This document shows, one piece after another, positions 418 through 49,347 of a stretch of 64,000 bases of DNA; position 1 is the stretch's first letter, and each line of letters opens with the position of its first letter. Source of the stretch: an uncultured delta proteobacterium (GTDB taxonomy: Bacteria > Myxococcota_A > Polyangia > Fen-1088). Where the stretch lies: the NCBI GenBank assembly GCA_963767925.1, contig CAVYGB010000001.1:160001-224000 (forward strand), read 5' to 3'. A program made the translations under genes and the position numbers. Below the pieces are notes generated by a model. It did not search any database and was not told the DNA's origin. It saw nothing but the letters and a program-made list of their open reading frames with translations.

Positions 418-3400
418 CTACTTCTGCTCGCCTGCATCTCGTTGCTCCGCGTTGCCGAGGCTTCGCCGGGCGAGCCACAGGGACACGGGCGCCTCCACGT
501 CCCGCATCGAGGTCGGCGCCTGGAAGCGGGCGGCATCCGCATCGAGGGCGACACCGCTGTCCTCCAGCCGCGTGCGCAGCAGAGCCTGGCGCTTGCTGCA
601 GCCCTGATCGAAACGCGAGTACACCCGCGGCTGCTCGCCCTTGCTGGCGCCCTGGACGATGCGATCCCAGGAATCGAACAGAACTCCCGCACGCATGCGG
701 ACGTCGCGGGCGATCTTCTCCGCAACCTCGGGGGTCCCATCGACGGCTGCGCAGGTCGCGGCGCGCTCGGCGATCTGGTCGATGACCCGGTCGCGCTGGG
801 CGAGGTTGTCGCGGATCGAGCCGGCAGCGCCCGGGGTGATCAGCGCTGGCAGCCCCAGGCGGGTCATCGCCACTAGGGCGCCGGCCAGGCCCCGTTCGAG
901 GGCGGGGATGGAGAACGGGGTCACGCTGGTGGCCTCCACGTTGGCGTAGAAGGCCTCGTGGTAGGCCTGGAAATGCTCGTAGTGCGAGCGGTCGCGCGGA
1001 CGGTAGGCGTTGAACGCGACCACGACAAGGCCGGGACGGTTGCGGTCGCGGCCGACGCGGCTGGTGGCCTGGATGTATTCGCTGGTTGTCTTGGGCTGGC
1101 CGGCCACCACCATCAGGCCCAGGCGGGGGACGTCCACTCCGACCGAGATCATGTTGCTGGCCAGGGTCACGTCGACGGTCTGGTTGCCGCCATGGGCCTG
1201 CTCCAGCCGGCGCTTGGCCTCCGTGATCCGCTGGGTGCTCTCCCGGCTGGTCAGCTCGAGCGGCTCGCTGTGCAGGTGCCGGACCTGGAACCAGGGGCTG
1301 GGGCCGTCGTGATCCTCGGGCACACGCTTGTCGGCCTGCGCGCAGCGGGTGCGCACCTCGTCCTCGACAAGGCGGCGCATGCCGCCCAGCTCGCGCAGGC
1401 TGTTGAAGTACCCCACCAGGGTCATGTACGTGTCGGCCAGCTCGGGGCCGTCCGGGAGCTGCTCGTACGCCCGCTGCGCGGCAGTGAGCAGGGCGCTGTA
1501 GATCCGAAGGAGGACGGCCTTCACCGCCCGCCCCGGAGCGGCGACGCCCAGGTAGAGGCGGCCGTGTCCGCCCCTGCTCGTGGGCCCCGAAGAAGGAGTC
1601 CGAGGCGTCGATCCCGGCCGGGGGAAATACGGCGGACGGCCGGGCGAACAGCGCGCGGATCTGCTGGCGGGCGCGGCGGACGGTGGCCGTCGAGGCGATG
1701 ACCTTGGGTCGCAGCGGGCGCCCGTCGGGGCGCTCCCGGGCGCACAGGCCATCGACCGCCATCTCGTAGAGGCCAACCATGGTGCCCAGCGGGCCGGAGA
1801 TCAGGTGCAGCTCGTCCTGGATGATGAGCTCAGGCGGGCGCAGGCCGTCGGGCAAGGCCTGCCCGCGGGCGGCGTCGGCCGGTCGGTCCATGTGACCGAC
1901 GAAGGCGCGGCCGTCACGGGCCAGCACCCGCCCGAACAGCGCCGCCGTCTCGCCGCGGAAGGGCAACATGGCCAGCTTGTCGACGGTGGCGATCACGAAG
2001 CCGGGTAGCTCGCGGTAGAGCAGCTCGTCGATGAACAGCACCGGGATGCCGTCGCCGCTCGCCAGCGTGAACGGGCAGGTGCCGTCGGTGGACACGCAGC
2101 CGACCCGCACCTCCGGGAAGCGCACCCCCTCCTCGCGCACGTCGAGGCTGGCCCGCGACAGCGGCCGCTGGCACCACGGGCAGCTCGTCAGCGGGCAGGG
2201 GATGGCGTCGCCGGGTTGCTCCCGGTAGGCCTCGAGAAGCTCCTTCATCCCCTTGACGTCGTTGGCGGTGGCCGCCTTGCCGACCCAGAGGCCGAGCGAG
2301 AAGCGCACGCTGCCCAGCCGCCCCGGATCGGCTTGCCGCAGCAGCTCCAGGGCGCAGACGAGGGTGGCGGCTCGCCCGAGCTGGTCGAGGGTCAGCAGGC
2401 GCAGGGTGTAGCGCAGCAACACCGCCACCCCGAGCCCCCCGTCCGGGCGGGCGGCCCCGCGCAGCCGGCGCAGGATCAGGATGAAGGCCGCCAGCCCCAG
2501 GTAGGCCTCGGTCTTGCCGCCGCCGGTGGGAAAGAAGATCAGCTCCACCAGCTCGCGGTCGTCGTGCCCGTCGTCGGCCACACCGGGGAGGCTGAGCAGG
2601 AGGAAGGCGAGCTGGAACGGGCGCCAGGCCGGCACGACGTTGGTCCGGGAGCGGTCGCGCTGCTTCGCCTGGTCCGCCATGGCCCGGTTGGCGAGCCGGA
2701 AGGCCTCCCGGACCTGGTCGTCGCTGGCCAGCAGGTCGATCCCCTCGCGGATGCGGTCGCGCGCGCGCCGGGCCTTGTCCGCGAGCTGCCGGGCAAAACT
2801 CGCGCGCCGGCCGGTCAGGGCGGCGCCCTTGCCCGCCTCGCGCTCGATCCAGGCGGCGTAGCCGTCGACCAGGCCGGTCAGCGCCGCCCGCACCGCCGCG
2901 CCGTCGGCCAGCCCCGCGAGCGCCTCCATGCCCAGGGTGACCCCCGCCCCCAGGTTCTCCCGGGTCTCGACGAGGGGCACCACCGCCCGGGGCATCCACA
3001 CCGTGCGCGCGCCGATCACGCGCCCGGTGGCGGGATCGGGGTCGGCGATCGGCTCGGCGGAGATGCCGTGCCCCACCGCCCACTCGCGTTGCCCCCGGTA
3101 CTGCAGGTCCGCCGTGCGATCGTCCTCGTCGTCGAGCCGCTCGCCCCGCTGCTTGGGCCAGGCGACGAGGGCATGTGACGAGTCGATGGTGACTGCCAGC
3201 TCGACCTGGAACACGAGCGCCTGATCGGCCTCGCGCCCATCGAGGGGGCGGCGGCAGTTCACGATGAAGACCGAGAGCGCCCGGGTGCCCTCGGGGAGGC
3301 CGGGGGCGGGGAGGAGCTGGTATTCCACCTCGAGGCTGTCCGGCTGCCCGTCGCCGGCGTCGGCGCCGTCCCCGGTGGAGCCGCCCGGCGGGCCGGCGCT

Positions 3401-4033
3401 GCCCGGAACTCGAAGGCGCCCGGTCGTGCCGGTGAGGGCGATGGGAATGGACACGGGGGCGTGCGGGATCCGGCGCCATAGCAGGCGCGCGGGGGACGGC
3501 CCGCCGCCGGCGGCGTTCTCGGCGGCGTCGCCGGAGGCCGGCCCGGGCCGTTGCCCGTCTCGATCGCCGACCTGGCCCCTGCCGCGCCCCACCCCGGCTC
3601 CATGCTCCCCGTCACCAGCGTTTCCGCGGAAATCTTCCTCGGATTCGGGGAGGTAGTCGGCCCAGCCGAGGGTGGCGGTGACCCTGTCCACCCCGGGCGG
3701 TAGCAGCAACGACAGCCCCATCGACGCGGGCCACAACATTCGCCGCTTCGGTTTCTGCTCCTCCGGCTCGGAGGTGGCATCGTCAGTCCCGGCGGCCATC
3801 TCCTCGTCGGGCTCCTTGTCCTCAACGGGAGACTCGTCGTCCTCGTTGAGAACCGCCACCCGCCGCGCCTCCGGCGCTAGGAAGCCGGTCAGGTACCAGC
3901 GGGAGGGTGCCCGGGGCAGCAGTTCGTCGGTGTGGGCGGGTTCGAAGGGGCCGATCAGGTCGGCATGCAGCGCCGAGACGAACTGCTCGCGGATGGCGGC
4001 ACTGCGTGCGGCCCGGGTCGCGGGGTCGCTCAC
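418..4033 (-). pseudogene. drmA: DISARM helicase DrmA (SF2), with one apparent frameshift near 1571-1590
   Basis: GTG at 4033 overlaps the upstream TGA. The N-terminus reads ADLIGP...PSRWYLTGFLAP, then Walker A FFPTGGGKTEAY and LIIQDELHLISGPLG in one frame. The C-terminal motifs VGYFNSLREL, ELTSR, SNMISVGVDVPRLG, QPKTTSEYIQATSRVGR and RPRDRSHYE are in the 418..1776 frame. Removing one G from the GGGG run (cccc at 1571-1574) restores the frame. Confidence 0.85.
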
Positions 4034-5496
4034 GAGGCTTTCCTCTTGCCGGGCTTCGCGCGGCTGGCGTTCTTGGCCGTCGCAACCGGCTTCCGCGGCG
4101 CCCGTCTTGGGCTGCGGCGGGGGCCGCTGGTTTCGGACACCGCGGCGGCGGCGTCGGTGGTGGCCGGATCGTCCGCGGTGGCGTCTTCGGCCGCGGCGCG
4201 CTCGGCGTTCAGGGCGAACAGGCGATCGATGACCGCATCGCTGAAGCGCTCGAAGGCGGTCCGCTGTTCCGCCGTGGTCGGGGTCTCGAAGAGTGGGACG
4301 TCGATCTCGGACCATCCGTAGGCGGCCAGGACGGCCCGATCCATCTCCTCGTGCAGGTGCCGAAGCTCGACGATGGCGGGGTCGCGGTTGGCGGCGTCCT
4401 TGAGCTGATTGTAGGTGGTGGTGAGGCCCTGATCGCGCCCGACCATCAGTTTGGCACGAGCGTCATAGAGTCGCTTGCCAATGTCGTTGAGCTGGCCGGA
4501 GTTGGCGAATCGGTTCGAGTCGGGAAAGGGGAAGGTATCGAAGCAGTCGCTTGCGGCGTAGCGAAGGTCGGTCTTCATCGAGGAGGATAGGAGGCGCGCC
4601 CAGAGCTCATGAATGCGCGATTGGAGAGTCCCGAAGTCGGCGGCACGTTTGAGAATAAAGACGTACATACTTTCGGCGAATACGCGATCAGTATCCTGGA
4701 GTGAAAAACATAGGTGCTTCGTGACCCTCGATGTTACGAGGCATCGATCGTTCATTCCTAGAGCCGCGGTTAAAGCCGGTCGTTTGTCTGCGTAGTGCCA
4801 CCAGTACTTTCGGTGCGCGGCTCGGTTCACGCGATCGCGTTCCGGCTTAACTTTCTCACGAACGATATGAAGTAGATCGGGCCAGCGCTCCGCCTCTTGG
4901 AGGCTCATGTCTCCAAAATTGATCACGAAACGATCGAAGTCCTGCGTCGGGCTTGTGTTGACCTCCTCGCCCCCGAGATAAGGAAAAATGAGTTTTTCGT
5001 TGGCCGCATTCTGGCGGATCAGCGCCTTCCGTTCCTCGGGCGTCAACACGAAGCCCATCCCTAGGACATACGAACCCACGTAGCAAAGGCCCTTGTTTGC
5101 CCGGAGCGGTCTCGGGTCGGGACGCTCTTCTGCGTTCAGAAGCCGCGAATTGATATTGGTGACCTCGCGGCCATCGAGACGTTTCAGGAGCGCCGGCAGG
5201 TCACATAGATGGCCCTTCGCAATGTGCACCAGTGAAATCGAGACCGCAGCCTCACCTGGCCAAGGCATGTTTCGGACCGCATCATAAATTGCGCCGCTTT
5301 CGCTCAATATTCGTTGTAGCCCAGATTGTCGAGTATCGCCCTGAGCTATCGTCTTCGTCGCGACCACCTCGCGCGCCTGCGGCGTCAGGGGAGGAAAGCC
5401 GCGCGAGCCGGTCTGGACCCGGGTATCGTCCTGCTCGGCCAGCGTCTCGTCGTCGATATCCTCGCCGTCCTCGGTAACGTCCGCCGAGGTGGACAC
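4030..5496 (-). CDS. C-terminal half (TRD/MmeI-like) of a DrmMI/type IIG-IIL adenine methyltransferase; catalytic N-terminal part missing
   Basis: ATKTIAQGDTR..GL..I, WPGEAAVSISLVH, PYLGGEEVN, RFVINF, LQSRIHELWA, DLRYAASDCFDTFPFP, GLTTTYNQL and LRHLHEEMDRAVLAAYGWS are typical of Eco57I/MmeI-like C-termini. No motif I (FxGxG) or NPPY/F motif IV is present. Coupled to drmA. Confidence 0.75.
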   Translation of the reverse strand: MSTSADVTEDGEDIDDETLAEQDDTRVQTGSRGFPPLTPQAREVVATKTIAQGDTRQSGLQRILSESGAIYDAVRNMPWPGEAAVSISLVHIAKGHLCDLPALLKRLDGREVTNINSRLLNAEERPDPRPLRANKGLCYVGSYVLGMGFVLTPEERKALIRQNAANEKLIFPYLGGEEVNTSPTQDFDRFVINFGDMSLQEAERWPDLLHIVREKVKPERDRVNRAAHRKYWWHYADKRPALTAALGMNDRCLVTSRVTKHLCFSLQDTDRVFAESMYVFILKRAADFGTLQSRIHELWARLLSSSMKTDLRYAASDCFDTFPFPDSNRFANSGQLNDIGKRLYDARAKLMVGRDQGLTTTYNQLKDAANRDPAIVELRHLHEEMDRAVLAAYGWSEIDVPLFETPTTAEQRTAFERFSDAVIDRLFALNAERAAAEDATADDPATTDAAAAVSETSGPRRSPRRAPRKPVATAKNASRAKPGKRKAS

Positions 5497-7056: not shown

Positions 7057-7643
7057 TTCGGCGAATTGTATATGTCGTAGCGCCGATTTTTCTGGGTCTA
7101 TTTGCCGTTCTCGCCTGGCCGTTTAAAACGCAGACATCGCCGGTGATGTCAGAAGAAGTTTCCAGCGAAGCTCAGAGCAGGCCCGGGAGCGTTTCGAAGA
7201 GTCGAGTGCAAGCGACTAATACAGTGTCACTCGCTTTGAAGGCCGTTGAACTTGCCCGTCGGGAACCTCAAGCGGAGATCCAGCGACCATTGTCGGACTT
7301 CGACAGGATTGCGATAAGGGATCGTCGTGCGACAAATCTTAAGGGCGGGATCATGGACGCCATGGACGAGCGAGACGCTGTAGTCGAAGAGACCTGCCCG
7401 GGATTTTCAAACCTGGAAAACACGACCCTGGAAGTCGTATTCCAAGTGGAGGCGAGCCAGGGTAAGGCGGCCGTTCGGAACCCCTCGTTACGTGTCCTGA
7501 GCGGCGCCCCGATAGAGCCGAGCCTCGAGCGTTGCTACCTGGGCGTGATCTCCTCGTTCGAACTGACGGCGCGGCCCTCGAGAGACTTCCTCGACTACGA
7601 AGGGTCTGTCGACATCCAATCCGTGTTTGGAGCAAAACCCTGA
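7053..7643 (+). CDS. Hypothetical membrane-anchored protein, possible TonB-C/AgmX-PglI-like C-terminal domain
   Basis: ATGA overlap with the upstream gene; N-terminal TM; C-terminal domain with a Cys pair (ETCP...ERCYLGVISSF). Confidence 0.55.
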   Translation: MIRRIVYVVAPIFLGLFAVLAWPFKTQTSPVMSEEVSSEAQSRPGSVSKSRVQATNTVSLALKAVELARREPQAEIQRPLSDFDRIAIRDRRATNLKGGIMDAMDERDAVVEETCPGFSNLENTTLEVVFQVEASQGKAAVRNPSLRVLSGAPIEPSLERCYLGVISSFELTARPSRDFLDYEGSVDIQSVFGAKP

Positions 7644-41399: not shown

Positions 41400-42060
41400 C
41401 GGCCGGGGCCTGTCGAGTCTGGTCGCCCCAAGTCGGCGGTGGCGCCACCCAGGCTGTCCTCTTGCGGCTGGAAGGCATCCCATCTCTGGACTGCCGCCTT
41501 CCGTACGGAAGCGGCCTGCGTCGGATGGAGGCGTCGGAACTGCGGGTGAAGGATCTCGACCAGGTGCGAGGTCCACCTTCGGGACGGAAGTGTCGCAGGG
41601 ATAGACGCACCATGCTTCCCCAGACCTGCGCTGGCCGCCGTGCCCACCTGGACGCAATTCGCGAGATCCATCGCGTCGATCTGCTCAAAGGCGCCGGCCG
41701 GGTCGCCCTGCCACCTGGCCGGCGGACGAAATATGGCCGCGCTCCCGCCGAGTGGCGCTGGAATGGTATTCCCCACCGCCCGTCACGACCGCGACGCCCG
41801 GACAGTCGAGGCCCGTCGTCACCACGTCTACCTTGATCCAGCGGGCTGTGCGAGAGGCTGTCCGAAGGCGATATCGCTAAGCCCGTCACCCCAACGCGTT
41901 TTGCTACAGCCTCCGCCACCCGCTGCTTTAGGACGGCCACGACCTCCGTACCATCCAGGAAATCCTTGGCCACAAGGATGTCGCGACTACCATGATCTAC
42001 ACCCACGTTACAAAGCGCGGCTCGCCGGCGTCCGCAGCCCTCTCGACTGCTGGCCTGAAT
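41400..42060 (+). pseudogene. intI: Integron integrase (IntI), heavily degraded with multiple frameshifts
   Basis: Across frames: YGSGLRRMEASELRVKDLD, DRRTMLP, HLDAIREIHRVDLLKGAGRVALP..TKYGRAPAEWRW (IntI-specific insertion), [44 protein letters not shown]. Confidence 0.85.
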
Positions 42061-42205
42061 CCGCAGTTCGCCACATCGCGGCCACTCCTGCCTTCCCGCT
42101 CTTTTCGGAGAGCTATTCATCGCCGTCGCCCCGGAAATGCGATCGTCTCGCGAACGGTGGCCGATGCTGATTCAAGGTCATGCCGACAGAAGAAATGGAT
42201 GGACG

Positions 42206-42706
42206 ATGACCGCACCGTACGAGACTCCGCCAGATGCCCTCGATCGCGAACTCGTCTTCGAGTTCGTCTGGCGCTTCTCGGTTTTCGAGTGTGCTCTTAA
42301 GCGCGAAGGCTTTCTACAACGAGTCGAAGGTGGCCGAGACGCTGCTCTGCCGGACTGGGACAGCTTTGCGAAATCAATCGTGGGCCGTTTCTCACGGGTG
42401 CGCGTGGACGGTTTTGAGGAAGCCAAGAAGTTCCTGGCCGCCCACCCTCCGCAGCAACAGGTCGTGTGCGACAATCAGCTGGCGTGGAAGCCCCTTGAGC
42501 AGAAGTCGGGAGAATCCCACGAGGTCTTTGTCATTCGATTAATCAAGACCGCGAGGAACAATCTGTTCCACGGTGGGAAGTATCCCGACGGTCCGATTGC
42601 CGAAGTCGCCCGCGACACATCCATTCTGCGAGCGGCGCTCAAGGTCCTTGAGGGGTGCTACGAGTTGCACTCCGGGATTGCTCGTCGGGTGAAAGAGGCA
42701 GCATGA
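42206..42706 (+). CDS. HEPN-domain protein (cassette-like gene)
   Basis: FSVFECALK..., RNNLFHGGK (RxxxxH HEPN motif); flanked by GTCATGC (42177) and GCATGAC (42701). Confidence 0.75.
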
Positions 42707-42784
42707 CATCGAATCGCAGCCGGCGATCATCCTCACTCGCTTCGCTCCGTCGGCTGCTCGCCGCGGAATTCCAGGACGCCTTGC
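42701..42784 (+). other. Degenerate attC-like recombination site
   Basis: R'' GCATGAC, 5-nt spacer, L'' ATCGCAGC; stem GGCGAtCAtCC/GGCTGCTCGCC; loop with TCGCTTCGCTC; L' GCGGAAT; R' GCCTTGC. Confidence 0.65.
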
Positions 42785-42808
42785 GTTTACGATAGGAAAG
42801 GGGGAACG

Positions 42809-43276
42809 ATGGTTGGATCCGAGGCAGATGGGGACAGCGCGGTCCAGCGTGAAATCGAACCAGAGGTTCTTGCGGGTCTAGGGAGTCGACTCAGCGTTCA
42901 CCTGGCGCCCCAGTCGTTCCGGTTGGGAGATGGCTGCCGTGTCGAGATCGACGGTTGCAGTACGCACCCACCCGTGCTTTGTGAGGTCTTTGCTCACATG
43001 GGAGTTCTCCTTCCGGGCCAAAAGAAGAAGATCATTACGGATGCCTTTAAGCTCATTTATGCGGAGAAAGCTCTGGCGATCCAGGCTCACAAGATCTTGG
43101 CTCTCACGGACGACGCTGCTGCGGCGGCTCTGCGTGGCCGGGCTTGGTACGCCCAGGCGTTCACAGCACTCGGCATAGAAGTGCATGTCGTAAAACTAAG
43201 CGCTGCCTCCGAAGAGAGGCTTCGCGCTGCTCAAGGCAGGCAGGGACGGGCATTCAGGGCGAGACGTGTCGCATGA
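42809..43276 (+). CDS. Uncharacterised protein, probable PD-(D/E)xK-like nuclease fold (cassette-like gene)
   Basis: Strong purine RBS; DSAVQREIE, VEIDG...LCEVFAH.G....GQKKKIITDAFKL. The stop lies inside a GCATGAC box. Confidence 0.6.
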   Translation: MVGSEADGDSAVQREIEPEVLAGLGSRLSVHLAPQSFRLGDGCRVEIDGCSTHPPVLCEVFAHMGVLLPGQKKKIITDAFKLIYAEKALAIQAHKILALTDDAAAAALRGRAWYAQAFTALGIEVHVVKLSAASEERLRAAQGRQGRAFRARRVA

Positions 43277-43300
43277 CCGGGAATTCAGCGGACGCCTACC
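43271..43300 (+). other. Left half of a degenerate attC-like site
   Basis: GCATGAC-cggga-ATTCAGCGGACG; the right half is not recognisable. Confidence 0.45.
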
Positions 43301-43838
43301 CTTCGTTGCCTCGCTTGAGCGAGTGTTTCACGAGGTCTTGAACCGCCTATTCTTGTCGGAGTGTGGGCGCTGGGAGGGGGGCGTACAATGGCCAGGCGAC
43401 AAACAGTTCAAGCGGGGTTGGTGGCTTTCATTGGATGCCTCTTGACGACCGGATCCTCAGCGGAGGTAGGTGCGTCCGCTGATCGGCACGTGCGCTTCCA
43501 AATCGTCGACGAAGACTGTTCGCGCATGGCTACGTCACTGGGTGCCAGGATTGTCGAATCCGGTCCTGGCAGTCCTAGAAATCCCCTCAGTGTCGCCACC
43601 GGCCTGCGCAGCCCCACTTTTCCACCGGAGCCAACGGGTGCCCAGGAGCCGAACACCCGCGGCACGTCCTCGCCCGGATGACCCGCGGAACGCCCCGAAT
43701 GGGGCCGACTCAGACTCGTCAATAGAGCGAGGTCGTCTCGCGCCTGCGTTGTTTAAGCGCGCGCCATGAGCGCTGGGCGAAGAACGGTCCCAAAATCACC
43801 GGGGATCCCGGGCACCGGTGATGCCGGTGGTAGTGGTA

Positions 43839-45764
43839 GTGCGCCGGGATAAACCGGCAGAGAGGAGAGAATGAGAGAGTCTCACGTCGAAGGAGTAGCG
43901 ACCCACGACGGCCCCGAGTCATGCGGTGGCGCCCGCGAGGACGCCGTCGAAGCGTTGGACAGGGGCACAAGCGGGCCGGGTATTGAGCCGCGAAATCCAC
44001 TCATCCAGGACGCCGACGCCGTTACCATGGGCGGAAGGCAACACGACTCGCATCGCAAACGCGAGATGCGGGACGGTCCTGCGCGGTCGGAGACCCCGTG
44101 CACGCAGGGAACCTCTCTGCACGAGAACCGGGAGAGCTGCGCGTTGCCTGTCGCGATGGTGCGGCAGGACGTGCCGGAAAGGCCCAAAGGCCGTACGCCG
44201 GTGATGCACAACTCGCAGCAGTCAGACGGGCTCATAGTACCGATGAAGCCTCCGAACGAAACCGGTAGTACAACGGTGGAGGAGGGGGTGGAGGGAAGGA
44301 GCCCGGCCAAGGGGAACACGGCTGAGCAAAACGCGCCCCGGACTCAGTGCCGGACCAGCGCGCCGAGTGCGCTTAACCGTGTGCAAGAAGCAGCACGAAA
44401 GGACAGGAAGCAACGGTTCACAGCGCTTCTGCACCATGTGACCGTCGACCGGCTCCGGGATGCATACCACGCGCTCAAGCGCAAGGCCGCGGCCGGAGTC
44501 GACGGCGTAACGTGGAGCGAGTATGGGCAGGATCTCGAGGCAAGCCTTGCGGACCTGCACGCACGAGTTCATCGCGGAGCGTACCGAGCGAAACCTTCGA
44601 GGAGGGTGTACATCCCGAAACCCGACGGTCGACAGAGGCCGCTGGGGATTGCTGCGCTGGAGGACAAGATCGTCCAGCGCGCAGTCGTCGAGGTGCTCAA
44701 TGCCATCTACGAAACAGACTTCCTCGGCTTCTCGTACGGATTCCGCCAGGGGCGCGGCCAGCATGATGCATTGGACGCGCTCGCAACGGGTATCACGCGC
44801 AAGAAGGTGAACTGGGTGCTCGACGCCGACATCCGTAGTTTCTTCGACACCATCGACCACGAATGGATGGTGAAGTTTGTCGAGCATCGCATCGCGGACA
44901 AGAGGGTCGTGCGGCTGATCCAGAAATGGCTGGCCGCCGGCGTACTCGAGCACGAAGAGTGGTCGGCCTCAGAGGAAGGGGTACCGCAAGGCGCGACGGT
45001 TTCGCCGCTCCTCGCGAACATCTACCTTCATTACGTGATCGACCTCTGGGTCCAACATTGGAGGAACAACATAGCGTGCGGCGAGATGATCGTCGTACGG
45101 TATGCCGACGATTTCGTGCTGGGTTTCCAACACGAAAGAGACGCGGTCCGATTCCGGGCCGACCTCCAGCAACGTCTCGAGCAGTTCGGACTTGGGTTGC
45201 ACCCCGAGAAGACGCGGCCTATCCGGTTCGGAAGATACGCGGAGCAGCAGCGTCGGGAACGGGGGCTTGGGAAACCAGAAACATTCGATTTTCTCGGCTT
45301 CTCACACGTGAGTGCGAAGTCGAGGGACCGAAAGTATCGGCTCCTCCGGCGCACCTCAAAGAAACGAATGCGGGCGAAGCTGCAGGGTATCCGCAAGGAC
45401 ATCATGCGGCGACGTCACCAGGCCCTCGAAGCGCAGGGCCAGTGGCTCGGGAGCGTGGTTCGCGGATACTTCGCGTACCACGCAGTACCCATGAACATCT
45501 CCAGGTTGAGCAGTTTTCGGGCCGAGGTCATCCGCGCTTGGCATCGCGCTCTTCGGAGACGAGGTCAGCGAGACCGGGCTGGCTGGAGTCGGATGAACAA
45601 GCTGGCTCGGCGATGGCTCCCCGTCCCGCGACGCCTACATCCACATCCCTGGGAACGCTTCGACGCCAGAACCCAAGGCGGGAGCCGAGTGCGGTAATTC
45701 CGCCCGCTCGGATCTGTGCGGGGGGCGGCCCAAGATTCACGTCGAGGGCCGTCCCTACCGCGAT
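43839..45764 (+). mobile_element. Group II intron (IIB, bacterial class E-like), apparently intact
   Basis: 5' GTGCG at 43839; DV GGGAGCCGAGTGCGGTAATTCCGCCCGCTCGGATCTGTGCGGGG at about 45680-45725; DVI ending CCCTACCGCGAT at 45764; encloses the RT ORF. Confidence 0.9.
44204..45697 (+). CDS. ltrA: Group II intron reverse transcriptase/maturase, no endonuclease domain
   Basis: RFTALLHH, AAGVDG, YIPKPDGRQRPLGI, FSYGFR, DADI..FFDTIDH, GVPQG..SPLLANIYLH, YADD, FDFLGF, maturase X domain. The frame is open from 43871. Confidence 0.95.
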   Translation: MHNSQQSDGLIVPMKPPNETGSTTVEEGVEGRSPAKGNTAEQNAPRTQCRTSAPSALNRVQEAARKDRKQRFTALLHHVTVDRLRDAYHALKRKAAAGVDGVTWSEYGQDLEASLADLHARVHRGAYRAKPSRRVYIPKPDGRQRPLGIAALEDKIVQRAVVEVLNAIYETDFLGFSYGFRQGRGQHDALDALATGITRKKVNWVLDADIRSFFDTIDHEWMVKFVEHRIADKRVVRLIQKWLAAGVLEHEEWSASEEGVPQGATVSPLLANIYLHYVIDLWVQHWRNNIACGEMIVVRYADDFVLGFQHERDAVRFRADLQQRLEQFGLGLHPEKTRPIRFGRYAEQQRRERGLGKPETFDFLGFSHVSAKSRDRKYRLLRRTSKKRMRAKLQGIRKDIMRRRHQALEAQGQWLGSVVRGYFAYHAVPMNISRLSSFRAEVIRAWHRALRRRGQRDRAGWSRMNKLARRWLPVPRRLHPHPWERFDARTQGGSRVR

Positions 45765-46312
45765 CCCGGTGAGGCCGGAGGCGACACCAGGGTGGCGAGC
45801 TCGACGCCGGCGTCCTTCTCCGCGGCTTGCTCGACGGCGTGTTCCAGATCCACGCCCGCCCGAGCGAGGAAGAACAGATCGATCAGGTCACGAATCTCCG
45901 CGCGGCCGAGCGTGGCGCAGATCTTGTTGGCCGCGATGTCTTCCAGACTGTCGATCACGGCGCCATCGATGCGAGGTTTTTCCCTGGTTAGCTGCGGGGC
46001 GGAATCGTGAACCAAGTCTACTTTGAGATGTTCGCCATCTACGACGGCCTGAAGCTCCACGAAGCCGGGGTACTCCCTCACGATCTCTGCCTTTCCCTCG
46101 AGGTCGGCGACCGCGCTGTCGACCAGGCGTCTGCCGTGAGTGAAGGTCTCGGCCGTGACTGTAAAAAAGTCGAGATCGGCGCTGGTGCGGTGGTGGAGGT
46201 AGTAGCCCGAGAGCGCAGAGCCGCCGGTCAAGAAGAATTGATCCGTCCGGGAGAAGAAGGCCTCGATCAGCCTTTGCTGGGCGAAGCTGAGACCTTTACG
46301 GGATGAGGCCAT
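45755..46312 (-). pseudogene. AbiEii/AbiGii-type nucleotidyltransferase toxin, 3'-truncated
   Basis: FFLTGGSAL..YYLHHRTSADLDFF, DIAANKI, RAEIRDLIDL, KDAG. The family-like sequence ends near 45790 and the stop falls inside the intron end. Confidence 0.75.
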
Positions 46313-46592
46313 CGGCGCGCCAGCGGTCCAGGATCCAGGTCCAGAAGGCGCGTCGGCGGCCCAGCCTGGCCGCCAGCAGCGGCCACCGCACCAGGATGTC
46401 GTCGAGCGTGACGAAGCGCCAGACGTCGTCGAAGCGCGCGTCTCGAAGGACGCGCGCTGTCCAGGTCAGCCTTTCGTCCGGGTCCGCGTCGCTCAAGCGG
46501 CCGCGAAGCTCCGCCACCGTCAGGGGCTGGTCCCAGACGAAATAGGGTTGCGCATCGTCGGAGTCGAGTGCGCGGCTGCACGCCGGGCGCAT
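46296..46592 (-). CDS. Putative antitoxin partner of the AbiEii-type toxin
   Basis: PYFVWDQPLTV.ELR..L, ARVLRDARFDDVWRFV, LGRRRAFW; overlaps the toxin start. Confidence 0.7.
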   Translation of the reverse strand: MRPACSRALDSDDAQPYFVWDQPLTVAELRGRLSDADPDERLTWTARVLRDARFDDVWRFVTLDDILVRWPLLAARLGRRRAFWTWILDRWRADGLIP

Positions 46593-47449
46593 CCTGCCAG
46601 TTTAGCATTTGTCGGCCTCGTCGGTGGGACGCAGGTAGGGGGCCGCTTCGAGGGAGAGCTGGGCGAAGGTACGGGCGAACAGCGGCAGGCGGAGGCCGAC
46701 CCCCAGGCCCAGGCCGACAACGGTCGAGCGGCGGAGGCCCTGGCGCTCGATCTGCTGCCACCAGCGCTGCACTTCGCCGAACACGAACGCGCGCAGGTCG
46801 ACTCGGGAGAAGGCGCGCTCGTAGGCCAGGACCAGGCCTCCACCGAGGGCGGTGGTGGCGACCCTCGTGTCGACGGCGGCGAAGCGCGCCAGCCTAGCGC
46901 ACCGTCTTCGAACAGCATCAATCATTCGGCGACGATCCTGCGCCCCCGCTTCGTTGCTCCTCCTCGGAATATGCCCGATATTCGTCGTTGTCGCGCCTCG
47001 CGGGGAGGCAGGCTTGTCGCCGCCTGATTGACGCTACTTCGAAGACGGTGCACGAGCAGGCGCAGGCCCAGCTCGAACGAGCCGAGCTGCGCGCCCAGGT
47101 AGAGGCGGGTCAGCGGGGCGGCGGCGCCGCCGCGGTGGGGCGGAGAGGACAGGCCAGCGCCGCCAGCGAAGCGCGCTGGTGGATCTCCAGCTCCTCCCCC
47201 TTGAGGTCAGCTCCTCCCCCTTGAGGGCGTCATCGGGGGACCCTCCAGTCCCCTGGCTGCTGGCATTTCAGGTCAACGAAGCGAAAAGGTCCACACTCTT
47301 GAACAAGGTGCCCGCGCCCTCGGCCGCCACGATGCGATGGTGTCCCGATCCGCTGGCCGCTGCCGAACTTCAAATCTGGGCGGACCGAAGACCGATTGAT
47401 CTCTTCGAACTCTCGGACGCCTCGACCGCATGTATGGAGCAGAAAAGAC

Positions 47450-47818
47450 ATGTCTCGGAACATCGAAACCGTCAACACCTACCTGGACGGCTTCCGCAAG
47501 AACGATCACGCGCAGATCCTGTCCTGCCTGACCGACGATATCGAGTGGACCGTCTTCGGTGCGTTTCATCTGACGGGCAAGGAGGCCTATGACCGCGCCA
47601 TCGACGGCGCGCCCGAGTTCATCGACCCTCCGGAACTGAAAGTCGTGCGCATGGTCGAGCAGGGAGATGTCGTCATGGCAGAGCTCACCGGCGTGGCGAG
47701 GCGAGCCGCAGGCGGCGAGATGCGCATGTCCATGGCCGAGGTATTCGTCATGCGAGACGGCAAGATCGCCGAGCGGCGCGCCTGGGTGATTCCTCTCAGC
47801 GAGAACGACTACCGCTGA
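47450..47818 (+). CDS. SnoaL-like / NTF2 family protein
   Basis: YLDGF..NDHAQILSCLTDDIEW..., EVFVMRDGKI.ERRAW. Confidence 0.88.
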   Translation: MSRNIETVNTYLDGFRKNDHAQILSCLTDDIEWTVFGAFHLTGKEAYDRAIDGAPEFIDPPELKVVRMVEQGDVVMAELTGVARRAAGGEMRMSMAEVFVMRDGKIAERRAWVIPLSENDYR

Positions 47819-48058
47819 TCGCGTGCGCGCCTGGTCGTCTTCGCCGGACTTGGCCCCCGGGCAATCAGCGTGGTCTCACCAGTACCTACGCAAGCTGGGA
47901 GCCTGGGGGTCCCAGCTATGGAGACGTTTCCCTGTCTGGATCGCTTGGCTCGCCAGCGATCTCGCGGTCCTCGGAGCAGTGGGCGATGCGATCAACATCC
48001 GTCCTGCGGCCCGGCTCTCCGCCGGTTCGGCCGGTCTGACCGGGTTATACTGATCGTC

Positions 48059-48298
48059 ATGGCGCAGCCCCTGCCCATGCCGCCCCCCGGCTTCGACGAA
48101 CTCCCCGTGGAGGAGAAGATCGATTACGTCCAGGCCTTGTGGGACAGGATCGCGACAAACGCCGACCACCTACCTCTCCGGGATTGGCAGCGTCTGATTC
48201 TGGAAGAGCGGCTAGCCGCTCATCGCACTACGCCAAGCGAGGCGCGCCCCTGGCGGGACGTCCTGGACGGCCTCGAGCGTCGGCTGAAGACGCGATGA
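48059..48298 (+). CDS. Addiction module antitoxin component (TIGR02574-like)
   Basis: PPPGFDELPVEEKIDYVQALWDRI...WQ..IL.ERL......PW. Confidence 0.85.
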   Translation: MAQPLPMPPPGFDELPVEEKIDYVQALWDRIATNADHLPLRDWQRLILEERLAAHRTTPSEARPWRDVLDGLERRLKTR

Positions 48299-48387
48299 CC
48301 GAGCTGCGCGTTCGCCCCGAAGCCAGGCGAACCAGGACGCTCTTCATATTGCGGTCGCAGCCGCTCACGGCCTGGACTACCCGCTAA
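48295..48387 (+). pseudogene. RelE/ParE toxin remnant (internal deletion)
   Basis: ATGA overlap; MTELRVRPEAR N-terminus joined to a P..W..R* type C-terminus; only 30 aa. Confidence 0.55.
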
Positions 48388-48507
48388 CATGGAATTGCCG
48401 GCAATTCGCGAATGCGACGATGCGCGCCCGAATCGGAGCAAGCTGTGTCGATGCCGGCTGCGAGGCTCCGGTGATCTTGTGCGCCGGAAGAGCTGCTGGA
48501 GGGCTGA
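48384..48507 (+). pseudogene. 3' remnant of a PIN-domain toxin
   Basis: LTWNCRQFANATMRARI...C..AG...PVI(C)APEELLEG*, matching the LTWNCxHxAN...ICTPEEL PIN subfamily end; one frameshift. Confidence 0.65.
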
Positions 48508-48509
48508 CC

Positions 48510-48704
48510 ATGCCGTGGAAAGACGAAATGATTGAAGGGGTAAGGAAGGCCCGTCGAGAGATCGGCGAGGCCCACGGAAACAACCTCCGTCGCGTTGTCG
48601 AGTATTTGCGGCAGAGGGAGCATGCGTCCAAGCGCAGCGTCGTAACCTTTGCACCGCGACCTCCTCGGCGGACAAAGAACGTGTCTGGAGCGACCGCCAA
48701 GTAG
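48510..48704 (+). CDS. Small protein typically paired downstream of that PIN subfamily (antitoxin-like)
   Basis: MPWKDEMIEGVRKARREI...HGNNLRRVVEYLRQRE. Confidence 0.6.
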   Translation: MPWKDEMIEGVRKARREIGEAHGNNLRRVVEYLRQREHASKRSVVTFAPRPPRRTKNVSGATAK

Positions 48705-48829
48705 CGGGCGCCGCCCACGCTGATCTCTGCGGGTCGAGCGCGAGCGCAGACGAGATCGCGGGCCTCCAAGAACCCTTCTGAGTCTGGCGGGCGCCTTCGT
48801 AGAGCTGCGATGAGGATGACTCGCCGGCC

Positions 48830-48913
48830 GGATGACCGCGCGTTATAGACGGACGACGACTTCTCGCGCTCCGCCCGGTCTCTTTTCTCCGCTGAACGCG
48901 GAGATCGTTACGC
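48830..48913 (+). other. attC-like recombination site
   Basis: R'' GGATGAC, L'' CGTTATAG-ACGGACGA ... L' CGCTGAACG, R' GTTACGC; 84 bp. Confidence 0.65.
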
Positions 48914-49347
48914 CGAGTCGCCGTCCTTCTCCTCGATGTCTCGTGCACGCGAGACTACATCACCGCTACGGGCTCCAATAGTCGTCGCCGGTGAACGGTT
49001 GCGTGGCGCCGCGCGCGCGATCACGGCCGCGATCTTCGATCAGGTCCCATGGACGGGTGACACACTTGCTTGTTCTGGTCCTTCGCTGGAAGTTCGAAAC
49101 CCTTCCTCAGGATTTTGAGGGCTCAATCGGCGTTTCGATCCTGCTGATGGTCGTCTGGCCCACGCGAGTCCTGAGTCGATCGTGATCGCCGTTGCGTCGC
49201 CGACGCGCTTGCAGCCACCGAGGCGGGGCGAGCGCCGCAGTCGGCTCGGTTTTCTCGCGGTTGGTCCGTTTGTCGCAAAGGCGATCACCTGCTTCCGATC
49301 ACGTCGGGAGCTTCGGGGGGTCCGTGTACGAACAGAAAGCGAGCGAC

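Follow-up and report, generated by a model that had tools for sequence, protein, structure and literature searches.

Overview of the locus

The stretch of 64,000 nucleotides analysed here (the window; C1:160001-224000) belongs to the genome of an uncultured delta proteobacterium (9.3 Mb, 71% G+C, 13 contigs, 83.8% complete). Over approximately 41.8-49 kb of the window, where the G+C content drops to 58-66%, lies a real but dead chromosomal integron of the co-oriented type. An integrase (intI) pseudogene, an attI junction, two recognisable attC sites, two attC-like relics, truncated cassettes, and an inserted group II intron were found at this locus, and the R'' boxes of the array carry GAC in place of the canonical AAC. 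An initial annotation had already described an integron array in a degraded region; both descriptions held, an inserted hairpin element adding to the signs of degradation. In the following, G000 is the genome under study, G001 and so forth are related genomes (which are non-independent samples), C denotes a contig, and L denotes a related locus; positions given without a contig are those of the window. The features that bear on the interpretation are as follows:

41447..42047, + strand: intI pseudogene (TIGR02249 below cut-off; tblastn with the intact IntI of G001:C869)
42170..42183, + strand: attI crossover region, ATTCAAG-G|TCATGC, the bar standing between G and T (by-eye alignment with the attI sites of C9 and G001:C869)
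42178..42777, + strand: cassette 1, beginning TCATGC, with the R'' box GCATGAC; homologous loci in many phyla
42206-42706, + strand: ORF1 of cassette 1, 166 aa
42699..42786, + strand: attC site a (46.2 bits with covariance model R1, E 4.4e-8; 15/20 pairs standard)
43271..43358, + strand: relic b, a decayed attC-like stretch (by-eye parallel of the left half; weak nhmmer match)
43676..43754, + strand: relic c (GGATGAC ... GTTGTTT), attC-like in length and end boxes only
48828..48915, + strand: attC site d, the last of the array (R1 44.1 bits, E 1.3e-7; 17/20 pairs standard)

The intI pseudogene and the attI site

Two matches to TIGR02249 were found, at C1:201450-201773 and C1:201827-202024, and both fall under the family cut-off. 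Compared by tblastn with the 314-aa IntI of G001:C869, the window sequence corresponds to residues ~107-313; the first third is gone, and the remainder is spread over three frames with an in-frame stop, its three-frame translation ending in ...GVRSPLD. The intact integrase gene of a complete functional integron is thus absent from the window locus, and no IntI above the family cut-off was found anywhere in G000, whereas 17 of 41 related genomes contain an intact one.

Downstream of the pseudogene, the crossover point G|T lies at 42177/42178, and the letters from 42178 onwards agree with those of homologous cassettes at their 5' ends. The junction reads ATTCAAG-GTCATGCCGAC (in its longer form GATTCAAG-GTCATGCCGAC), compared with AATTCAAA-GTTAGCC on C9 (longer form AATTCAAA-GTTAGCCGCAC; also AATTCAAAG|TTAGCC downstream of intI) and GAATTCAAA-GTTAGCG on G001:C869 (longer form GAATTCAAA-GTTAGCGAGAC; also GAATTCAAAG|TTAGCG downstream of the intact intI). 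An attI site beside intI, with the crossover expected of G|TT, is therefore present, its third base being a C supplied by the cassette. The left arm of attI also shows an A>G change, reading CAAGG in the window against CAAAG.

C9 of the same genome contains a second integron relic, consisting of a frameshifted intI, ~200 nt of sequence, the AATTCAAAG|TTAGCC junction, and then a cassette ending GGCTAAC...G|TTGGAC. This relic (intI pseudogene and three cassettes, C9:~2100-4832) is flanked by a 23-nt direct repeat, GGATCCCG[G/C]TGTTGATCGGCTCG, with copies at C9:1835-1857 and C9:4812-4834 (L001 contains part of the region); because the repeat brackets the relic, the whole unit may have come in or been duplicated as a block.

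The order intI, attI, cassettes on a single strand is shared by the window, C9, G001:C869, G024:C1, G010:C72, and G002:C320, and intI is intact in the last four. Co-oriented ('atypical') integrons in which intI is transcribed toward attI and the cassettes have been described for Treponema (PMC3607928), and the T. denticola type in that report resembles the window in having all three components on one strand with attI downstream of the 3' end of intI. The likeness is one of layout, the present host belonging to a different, high-G+C bacterial family.

attC sites and attC-like relics

Sites were searched for with R1, which was built from 11 canonical attC sites of G000 with the R-box pairs added by hand and was run with the filters off, and with an nhmmer profile based on seven canonical sites from the same genome. 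R1 is a family-specific model whose E-values are rough, and its 11 seed sites score 62.7-100.7 bits; the site alignments (A2 and A4) were fitted to its structure. These models superseded a strict attC regular expression, which found only two sites in the genome. An Rfam scan of the window matched no attC family, its sole match being the group II intron. The shared loop TCGCTTCGCTC proved misleading as an attC marker, the same words being found in a REP-like repeat (...GTAGTCGGGTTCCC-TCGCTTCGCTCG-GGCCCGACTAG) with dozens of copies throughout G000, e.g. at C2:617526-617577. Loop words of this repeat are akin to the central loop of the attC sites of the integron family studied here, and further copies lie outside the window at C1:34173-34400; a tandem run with a 57-nt period is among the copies in the genome.

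GCATGAC occurs at 42701-42707 and 43271-43277, and GGATGAC at 43676-43682 and 48830-48836, with an extra copy at 48814-48820. All motif positions in the initial annotation, including those of GTCATGC (42177) and GTTACGC (48907), agree with the sequence, as does its description of three cassette-like open reading frames (ORFs) ending with TGA inside the box: the TGA of the first three boxes is the stop codon of ORF1 (42137/42206-42706), ORF2 (42809-43276), and ORF3 (43361-43681). The TGA at 48833 closes no ORF, a TAG lying 33 nt upstream in the same frame. In total, GSATGAC was found 14 times in the window, which is the chance level (16.25 +/- 4.04 expected; 74 of 100 shuffles reach 14), and nine of the 14 occurrences lie inside 42177-48836, the stretch of lower G+C content. 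Sites a and d are regarded as true attC sites because of homology, not because of the frequency of the 7-mer.

Four attC-like sites had been proposed, and two of them stood: R1 recognised those at 42701 and 48830 (sites a and d), its third-best match in the window reaching 18.0 bits (E 0.095), and did not recognise those at 43271 and 43676. The nhmmer profile likewise matched 42712-42776 (E 4e-8) and 48839-48910 (E 3e-5; E 1.2e-7 in a search of 7.5 kb). The R1 alignments place GCATGAC and GGATGAC at the R'' position of sites a and d, in the order R'', 3 nt, L'', and the GAC boxes of these two sites are hence true R'' boxes, as had been supposed.

The R' boxes are less uniform. For site a, spacing and the R1 alignment indicate GCCTTGC (42778-42784), with GTTTACG (42785-42791), 7 nt further on, as an alternative, so that this box is ambiguous; the others are CTTGTCG at 43352 (relic b), GTTGTTT at 43748 (relic c), and, as already annotated, a GTT box, GTTACGC (48907-48913), in site d. 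GTC is found in only one of the five R' boxes, that at the attI junction (site a has GCC or GTT, b CTT, c GTT, and d GTT). A variant core, with GAC in R'' and GTC in R' at most sites, is thus not what the array contains, R'' being GAC in 4/4 cases and R' being GTC in 1/5.

Relic b reads GCATGAC-CGG-GAATTCAGCGGACG...TTGAACCGCC-TATTC-CTTGTCG, and by eye its left half parallels site a and the consensus. The nhmmer match to it (43286-43326; 6.1 bits, E 0.032 in 7.5 kb) is weak and covers the left stem and loop. Over 43230-43800 (571 nt), the best R1 match reached 6.1 bits (E 0.4) and lay off both the 43271 and the 43676 site; relic c was matched by neither R1 nor nhmmer. The boxes at 43271 and 43676 were at one time considered to be internal deletions, with R'' fused to the right half of a site, and this was dropped for 43271 after nhmmer had aligned 43286-43326 to the left stem and loop; the resemblance of 43271 to the right half of site a is due to the palindromic GAATTC. 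On the same alignment, GCCTACC (43294) was withdrawn as the R' box of 43271, together with a pattern of C at the third R' position in 3/3 cassettes. Another possible relic of an attC right half, CCGCTGCCGAACTTCAAATC-TGGGCGGAC, which is without the GT of GTTGGGC, precedes the SnoaL gene at 47346-47385, and its nhmmer match is not significant (E 1.7).

Folding of the bottom strand gave z-scores against shuffled sequences of 0.02 for site a, -1.32 for site d, 0.83 for relic b (on the partial span 43269-43312), and -0.73 for relic c, compared with -3.20 for a C9 site and -5.67 for a site on G001:C70. When the 98 aligned sites of the family are ranked by energy per base, site a comes 88th and site d 78th, and the minimum-energy fold closes the R box in neither, whereas it does so in 55 of the 96 other sites. 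The L''/L' pairing and stem-loop previously reported for 42701 and 48830 are therefore retained in part: most model pairs are still standard, but the folds are at the level of shuffles and leave the R box unclosed. Failure to fold or score as attC had been named as grounds for abandoning the idea of a variant core, and at this array folding is poor throughout and R1 recognises only two of the four sites.

Core sequences of homologues and related genomes

The closest homologue of site a, G001:C70:2354-2434 from the same genus, is 80% identical and reads GCATAAC-ATG-TCATTGCAGCGG...CTGAATGCCAGGTC-GTTATCC. It folds as a complete hairpin at -30.6 kcal/mol, compared with -17.0 kcal/mol for site a.

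ORF1 matched no Pfam or NCBIfam family, yet it is a cassette gene of wide distribution: relatives of it are encoded at 26 loci, which belong to Nitrospirota, Proteobacteria, Planctomycetota, Acidobacteriota, and other phyla. Twenty-five of these loci were examined, L087 having been dropped (23-residue match). Across these 25, R1 gave 17 matches with E <= 1, and attC sites stand beside ORF1 homologues in seven (L064, L066, L070, L072, L077, L080, and L082). In 11 of the 25 loci, a pattern located the 5' end of the cassette immediately before the gene, typically as GTTATGCCGACTGAGAAG (GTT(T)A[TG]G...); GTT is present in all 11 and GTC in none, and inspection by eye shows GTTATGC in L062 as well. 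The commonest 7-mer over the stop codon is GCATAAC (6/25), and TGAC is present in four loci (GCATGAC in L070, GAATGAC in L071, and GCTTGAC in L076 and L082). Ordinary boxes in the relatives had likewise been given beforehand as a reason to reject a variant core, and they are what G001:C70 and the 11 cassette-1 5' ends display.

R1 detected the attC family in 53 of 101 genomes searched, including 50 of 60 from the same bacterial family. Sites from 30 loci of relatives and from G000 were aligned (98 sites; 86 from relatives and 12 from G000). The scan of relatives for GAC/GTC variation proposed in the initial annotation went against the expectation behind it: among the 86 sites, R'' is AAC in 75 and GAC in two, and R' is GTT in 79 and GTC in one. 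The pattern GAC-N5-GTTGCAGCGGAC gave nine matches in eight of the 88 relatives, close to the eight of a reversed-pattern control, whereas its AAC form (AAC-N5-GTTGCAGCGGAC) gave 212 matches in 51 of 89 genomes (control, 7). None of the 88 relatives has more than two GAC-pattern matches, and no two matches lie on one contig. A variant core conserved in the homologues and tied to an intact cognate IntI was thus not found, the local intI being dead, and GAC is not a property of the lineage.

The compensated cassettes

GTCATGC at 42177-42183, at the junction of attI and cassette 1, is the exact reverse complement of GCATGAC, and the compensated pair first pointed out in the initial annotation is real. 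Cassette 1 (G|TCATGC...GCATGAC) departs from the other members of its family at two positions, which are separated by 525 nt and paired in the folded attC; it is the only clearly compensated cassette in the window.

A second compensated cassette, G|TCAGCC...GGCTGAC, was found in another genus, at L104 (G059:C407), 889-1582. The preceding attC there ends ...GGTC-GTCAGCC, and the TGA in the GGCTGAC of the next cassette stops an ORF of ~180 aa; no IntI was detected in this genome (94% complete) at E <= 1e-30. TGAC boxes also occur in L099, L104, and L105. L105 (G128:C106, 470-2363) contains four attC sites, two of which have a TGAC R'' (GGCTGAC and AACTGAC), in an array located 1.4 kb from a partial intI match (model positions 191-314 only), and G010:C32 has one TGAC box. 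Uncompensated GAC cassettes with a known 5' end are those of L099 (TTAGCC/GGCTGAC), L105 (two), L070, and L071, while L036 shows the converse single change, with GTCAGCC ahead of GGCTAAC. Two of the seven GAC cassettes with a known 5' end are therefore compensated, far more than a GTC frequency of ~1% would give, which suggests that R-box pairing was under selection while the cassettes were mobile.

This agrees with mutants engineered for the class 1 integrase IntI1. In the assays of Frumerie et al. (2010, PMC2811028), recombination falls from 2.2e-3 to 6e-6 when the R box is not complementary, whereas an attC-GTC with the complementary change recombines with wild-type attI1 at the wild-type level by canonical IntI1; GTC x GTC recombination is 150-fold down, and attCVCRd-GTC showed no detectable cleavage in an attC x attC complex. 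The engineered attCaadA7-GTC and attCVCRd-GTC of that report carry the same GTT>GTC change with the complementary AAC>GAC, and cassette 1 sits at an attI whose relatives read GTT. The mutants were made in the laboratory for class 1 IntI1, whereas the window variant is natural, belongs to another integron lineage, and is known from sequence alone. Because IntI1 in those assays accepts GTC with a GTT partner, an ordinary integrase could have inserted cassette 1 at a GTT attI, and because GTC x GTC is poor, a GTC-only system would work worse, the opposite of what a dedicated GTC system needs.

Origin of the GAC boxes

The array is very probably a decayed integron in which the GAC boxes are derived single-base changes of AAC that keep a stop codon and entail no new specificity. 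Each R'' box G[C/G]ATGAC derives from the canonical G[C/G]ATAAC by one A>G transition, which in three cassettes turned the overlapping TAA stop into TGA. Once a working integrase was lost, selection on the AAC triplet would have been relaxed, and selection on the stop codon would have filtered the changes, so that TGAC accumulated. Cassette 1, with a matching T>C at its own 5' end, would have kept a complementary R box and was probably integrated at attI in this form. An ordinary integrase would suffice for this, the crossover staying between G and T.

Several counts are consistent with such relaxation. R'' is not AAC in six of 12 G000 sites (AGC in two, GGC in one, AAA in one, and GAC in two, after correction of two alignment slips), compared with at most 11 of 86 in relatives, and five of these six sites carry A>G changes; attC erosion is thus general in G000. 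In three of the four window boxes, the A that has changed is the second letter of a TAA stop, where TAA>TGA keeps the stop. Among the long open frames of G000 (n=696), TGA is the commonest stop codon, closing 455, and TAA closes 51. Relaxed selection with a stop-codon filter would be the simplest explanation, though an unproven one.

A number of observations weigh against this explanation. All four R'' boxes of the array share the change, against a family rate of ~2-4%, so that drift alone would need shared ancestry of the sites, a strong stop-codon filter, or a long relaxation, and the box at 48830 closes no ORF today. GC-biased decay was considered and set aside, a comparison of substitutions between sites a and d and their nearest homologues giving no clear AT>GC bias (7 AT>GC and 9 GC>AT in site a; 6 and 13 in site d). 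Compared with G001:C70, one L''/L' pair of site a has undergone a compensatory change (C:G to A:T, by eye), from which it follows that the site evolved under structural constraint for some time. At 83.8% completeness, an intact intI could sit in the unassembled part of G000. Finally, TC starts in two of seven GAC cassettes, set against GTC in ~1% of R' boxes, favour selection on pairing over pure decay.

The last point also bears on a stricter version, in which all GAC boxes and the T>C at 42179 arose by drift after the death of the integrase, the complementarity of cassette 1 being a coincidence of two A:T>G:C transitions. In favour of such an origin, ~20% of the A/T positions show a G/C difference when the window sites are set beside their nearest homologues (7/35 and 6/26), the attI left arm has undergone A>G too, half of the G000 attC sites have eroded R'' triplets, and sites a and d fold poorly. 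It is nevertheless rather unlikely: a second, independent compensated GTC/GAC cassette exists in G059:C407, and with GTC in 1/86 R' boxes of relatives, two compensated cassettes among seven are more than independent drift predicts.

Concerning the middle of the array, it is conceivable, if doubtful, that the boxes at 43271 and 43676 are not attC remnants but random occurrences of the 7-mer GSATGAC that happen to hold the TGA stops of ORFs. The 7-mer is at chance frequency in the window, R1 recognises neither position, their folds are no better than those of shuffles, and ORF2 and ORF3 are without homologues or families. Yet the layout at 43271, GCATGAC-3 nt-GAAT..CAGCGGACG, repeats that of site a and the family consensus and received the weak nhmmer match (E 0.032), and both boxes lie at expected cassette ends, 400-570 nt apart, each directly on an ORF stop.

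The variant integron favoured by the initial annotation, in which the integrase and its sites would have evolved together toward a GAC/GTC core and a shifted specificity of crossover, is very improbable. Four GAC R'' boxes in one array and a perfectly compensated GTC/GAC cassette at the attI junction are what it would lead one to expect, and a dead integrase cannot be assayed for its former preference. Against it stand the R' boxes, only one in five of which has GTC, the AAC/GTT sites and cassettes of the closest relatives, and the scattered GAC matches among the 88 genomes. In addition, cleavage still falls at G|T, the structure of the sites has decayed, the cognate intI survives only as a pseudogene, and canonical IntI1, in the assays of PMC2811028, takes GTC with a GTT partner and handles GTC x GTC 150-fold worse. 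The analysis thus gave no evidence of a shift in crossover specificity. A related proposal, that of a fossil lineage-specific integron whose integrase once preferred or required G:C at the third R-box position, with G|TCATGC...GCATGAC and the G|TCAGCC...GGCTGAC of G059 forming a separate, partly incompatible cassette pool, is just as improbable; if it were true, integrons would be able to diverge into cassette pools that are incompatible in recombination.

Comparison with known decayed integrons

As a decayed integron, the locus is ordinary and of a known kind. Decayed chromosomal integrons in which attC sites are clustered (CALIN) next to an intI pseudogene have been catalogued (Cury et al. 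2016, PMC4889954). The window likewise contains two + strand attC sites that have an intI pseudogene, but no functional intI, in their vicinity (within 10 kb for the pseudogene), although sites a and d are 6.0 kb apart, over the default 4-kb clustering distance of IntegronFinder. Like the CALIN described in that survey, the window has cassettes mostly of unknown function together with toxin-antitoxin pairs, and there is no working integrase in the genome. It differs from them, as they are presented there, in that attI can be located by homology, in that a group II intron, a hairpin element, and internal deletions have further disrupted the array, and in that every recognisable R'' box is GAC.

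The small additional value of the locus is that it provides a natural counterpart of what was seen in the laboratory: real cassettes, too, can vary at the third base of the cleavage triplet, and in this G+C-rich host the variation goes with the exchange of a TAA stop for TGA. The co-change of the partner base in at least two independent cassettes is field evidence for selection on R-box pairing.

Other cassettes and inserted elements

The remaining features of the array are as follows:

42809..43276, + strand: ORF2, an orphan of 155 aa, with its stop TGA in GCATGAC at 43271
43361..43681, + strand: ORF3, 106 aa, with a possible shorter start at 43390 and its stop TGA in GGATGAC at 43676
43839..45764, + strand: group II intron with an ORF for a reverse transcriptase/maturase (RF02005, 185 bits at 43876-44096; TIGR04416, 359 bits)
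45755-46312, - strand: AbiEii-type toxin gene (PF08843, 1.4e-15; profile positions 11-190 of 238), truncated at its 3' end by the intron
46296-46592, - strand: small ORF upstream of the AbiEii gene (AbiEii unit 45755..46592)
47396..47818, + strand: SnoaL-like cassette gene (PF12680, 4.2e-15)
47870..48323, + strand: antitoxin (TIGR02574/PF09720; the antitoxin itself at 48060-48298) and the first ~10 codons of the toxin

ORF2 matched no Pfam or NCBIfam family and has no homologue in 88 family genomes or in a metagenome pattern scan, so that these searches did not fix the true 5' end of cassette 2. ORF3 also matched no Pfam or NCBIfam family.

The intron is ~1.9 kb long, starts with GTGCG, and lies on the cassette strand; its ends were inferred to within a few nucleotides from related copies of ~75% identity at C4:~143259-145177 and C13:~125421-126578. 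It begins 16 nt after an 8-bp hairpin (ATCACCGG...CCGGTGAT), and its 3' flank is within the truncated AbiEii gene. An insertion inside the attC at 43676 (GCGTTGTT|TAAGCG) was ruled out, the C4 and C13 copies setting the 5' end at GTGCG (43839). Group IIC-attC introns, as described in PMC3001079, are inserted in the bottom strand of attC and oriented against the cassettes. The window intron resembles them in being a short group II intron located after a hairpin inside a cassette array, but it lies on the + strand like cassettes 1-3, its 5' flank does not score as attC, and its 3' flank is in the AbiEii gene; it therefore does not have the placement of that group.

A long imperfect inverted repeat with ~52-nt arms (GCACCGTCTTCGAA...TTCGAAGACGGTGC) occupies 46897-47051 and resembles an inserted element of miniature size. 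In G001:C733, no more than 22 nt separate the homologous flanks (7231-7460 and 7482-7634), which indicates that this hairpin element is an insertion in the window.

No attC was detected downstream of the SnoaL gene by R1 or nhmmer. Further on, 47903-48323 is 88% identical to G001:C639, where the antitoxin cassette is intact in an array with GCCCAAC/GTTGGGC sites; the toxin gene continues in G001, and the similarity stops at 48323. At 48295-48704, the toxin stub is fused to a C-terminal fragment (...HIAVAAAHGLDYPLTWNCRQFAN...), itself frameshifted before ...PEELLEG*, which we take to be PIN-like. A 64-aa ORF at 48511-48704 comes after the toxin-stub fusion.

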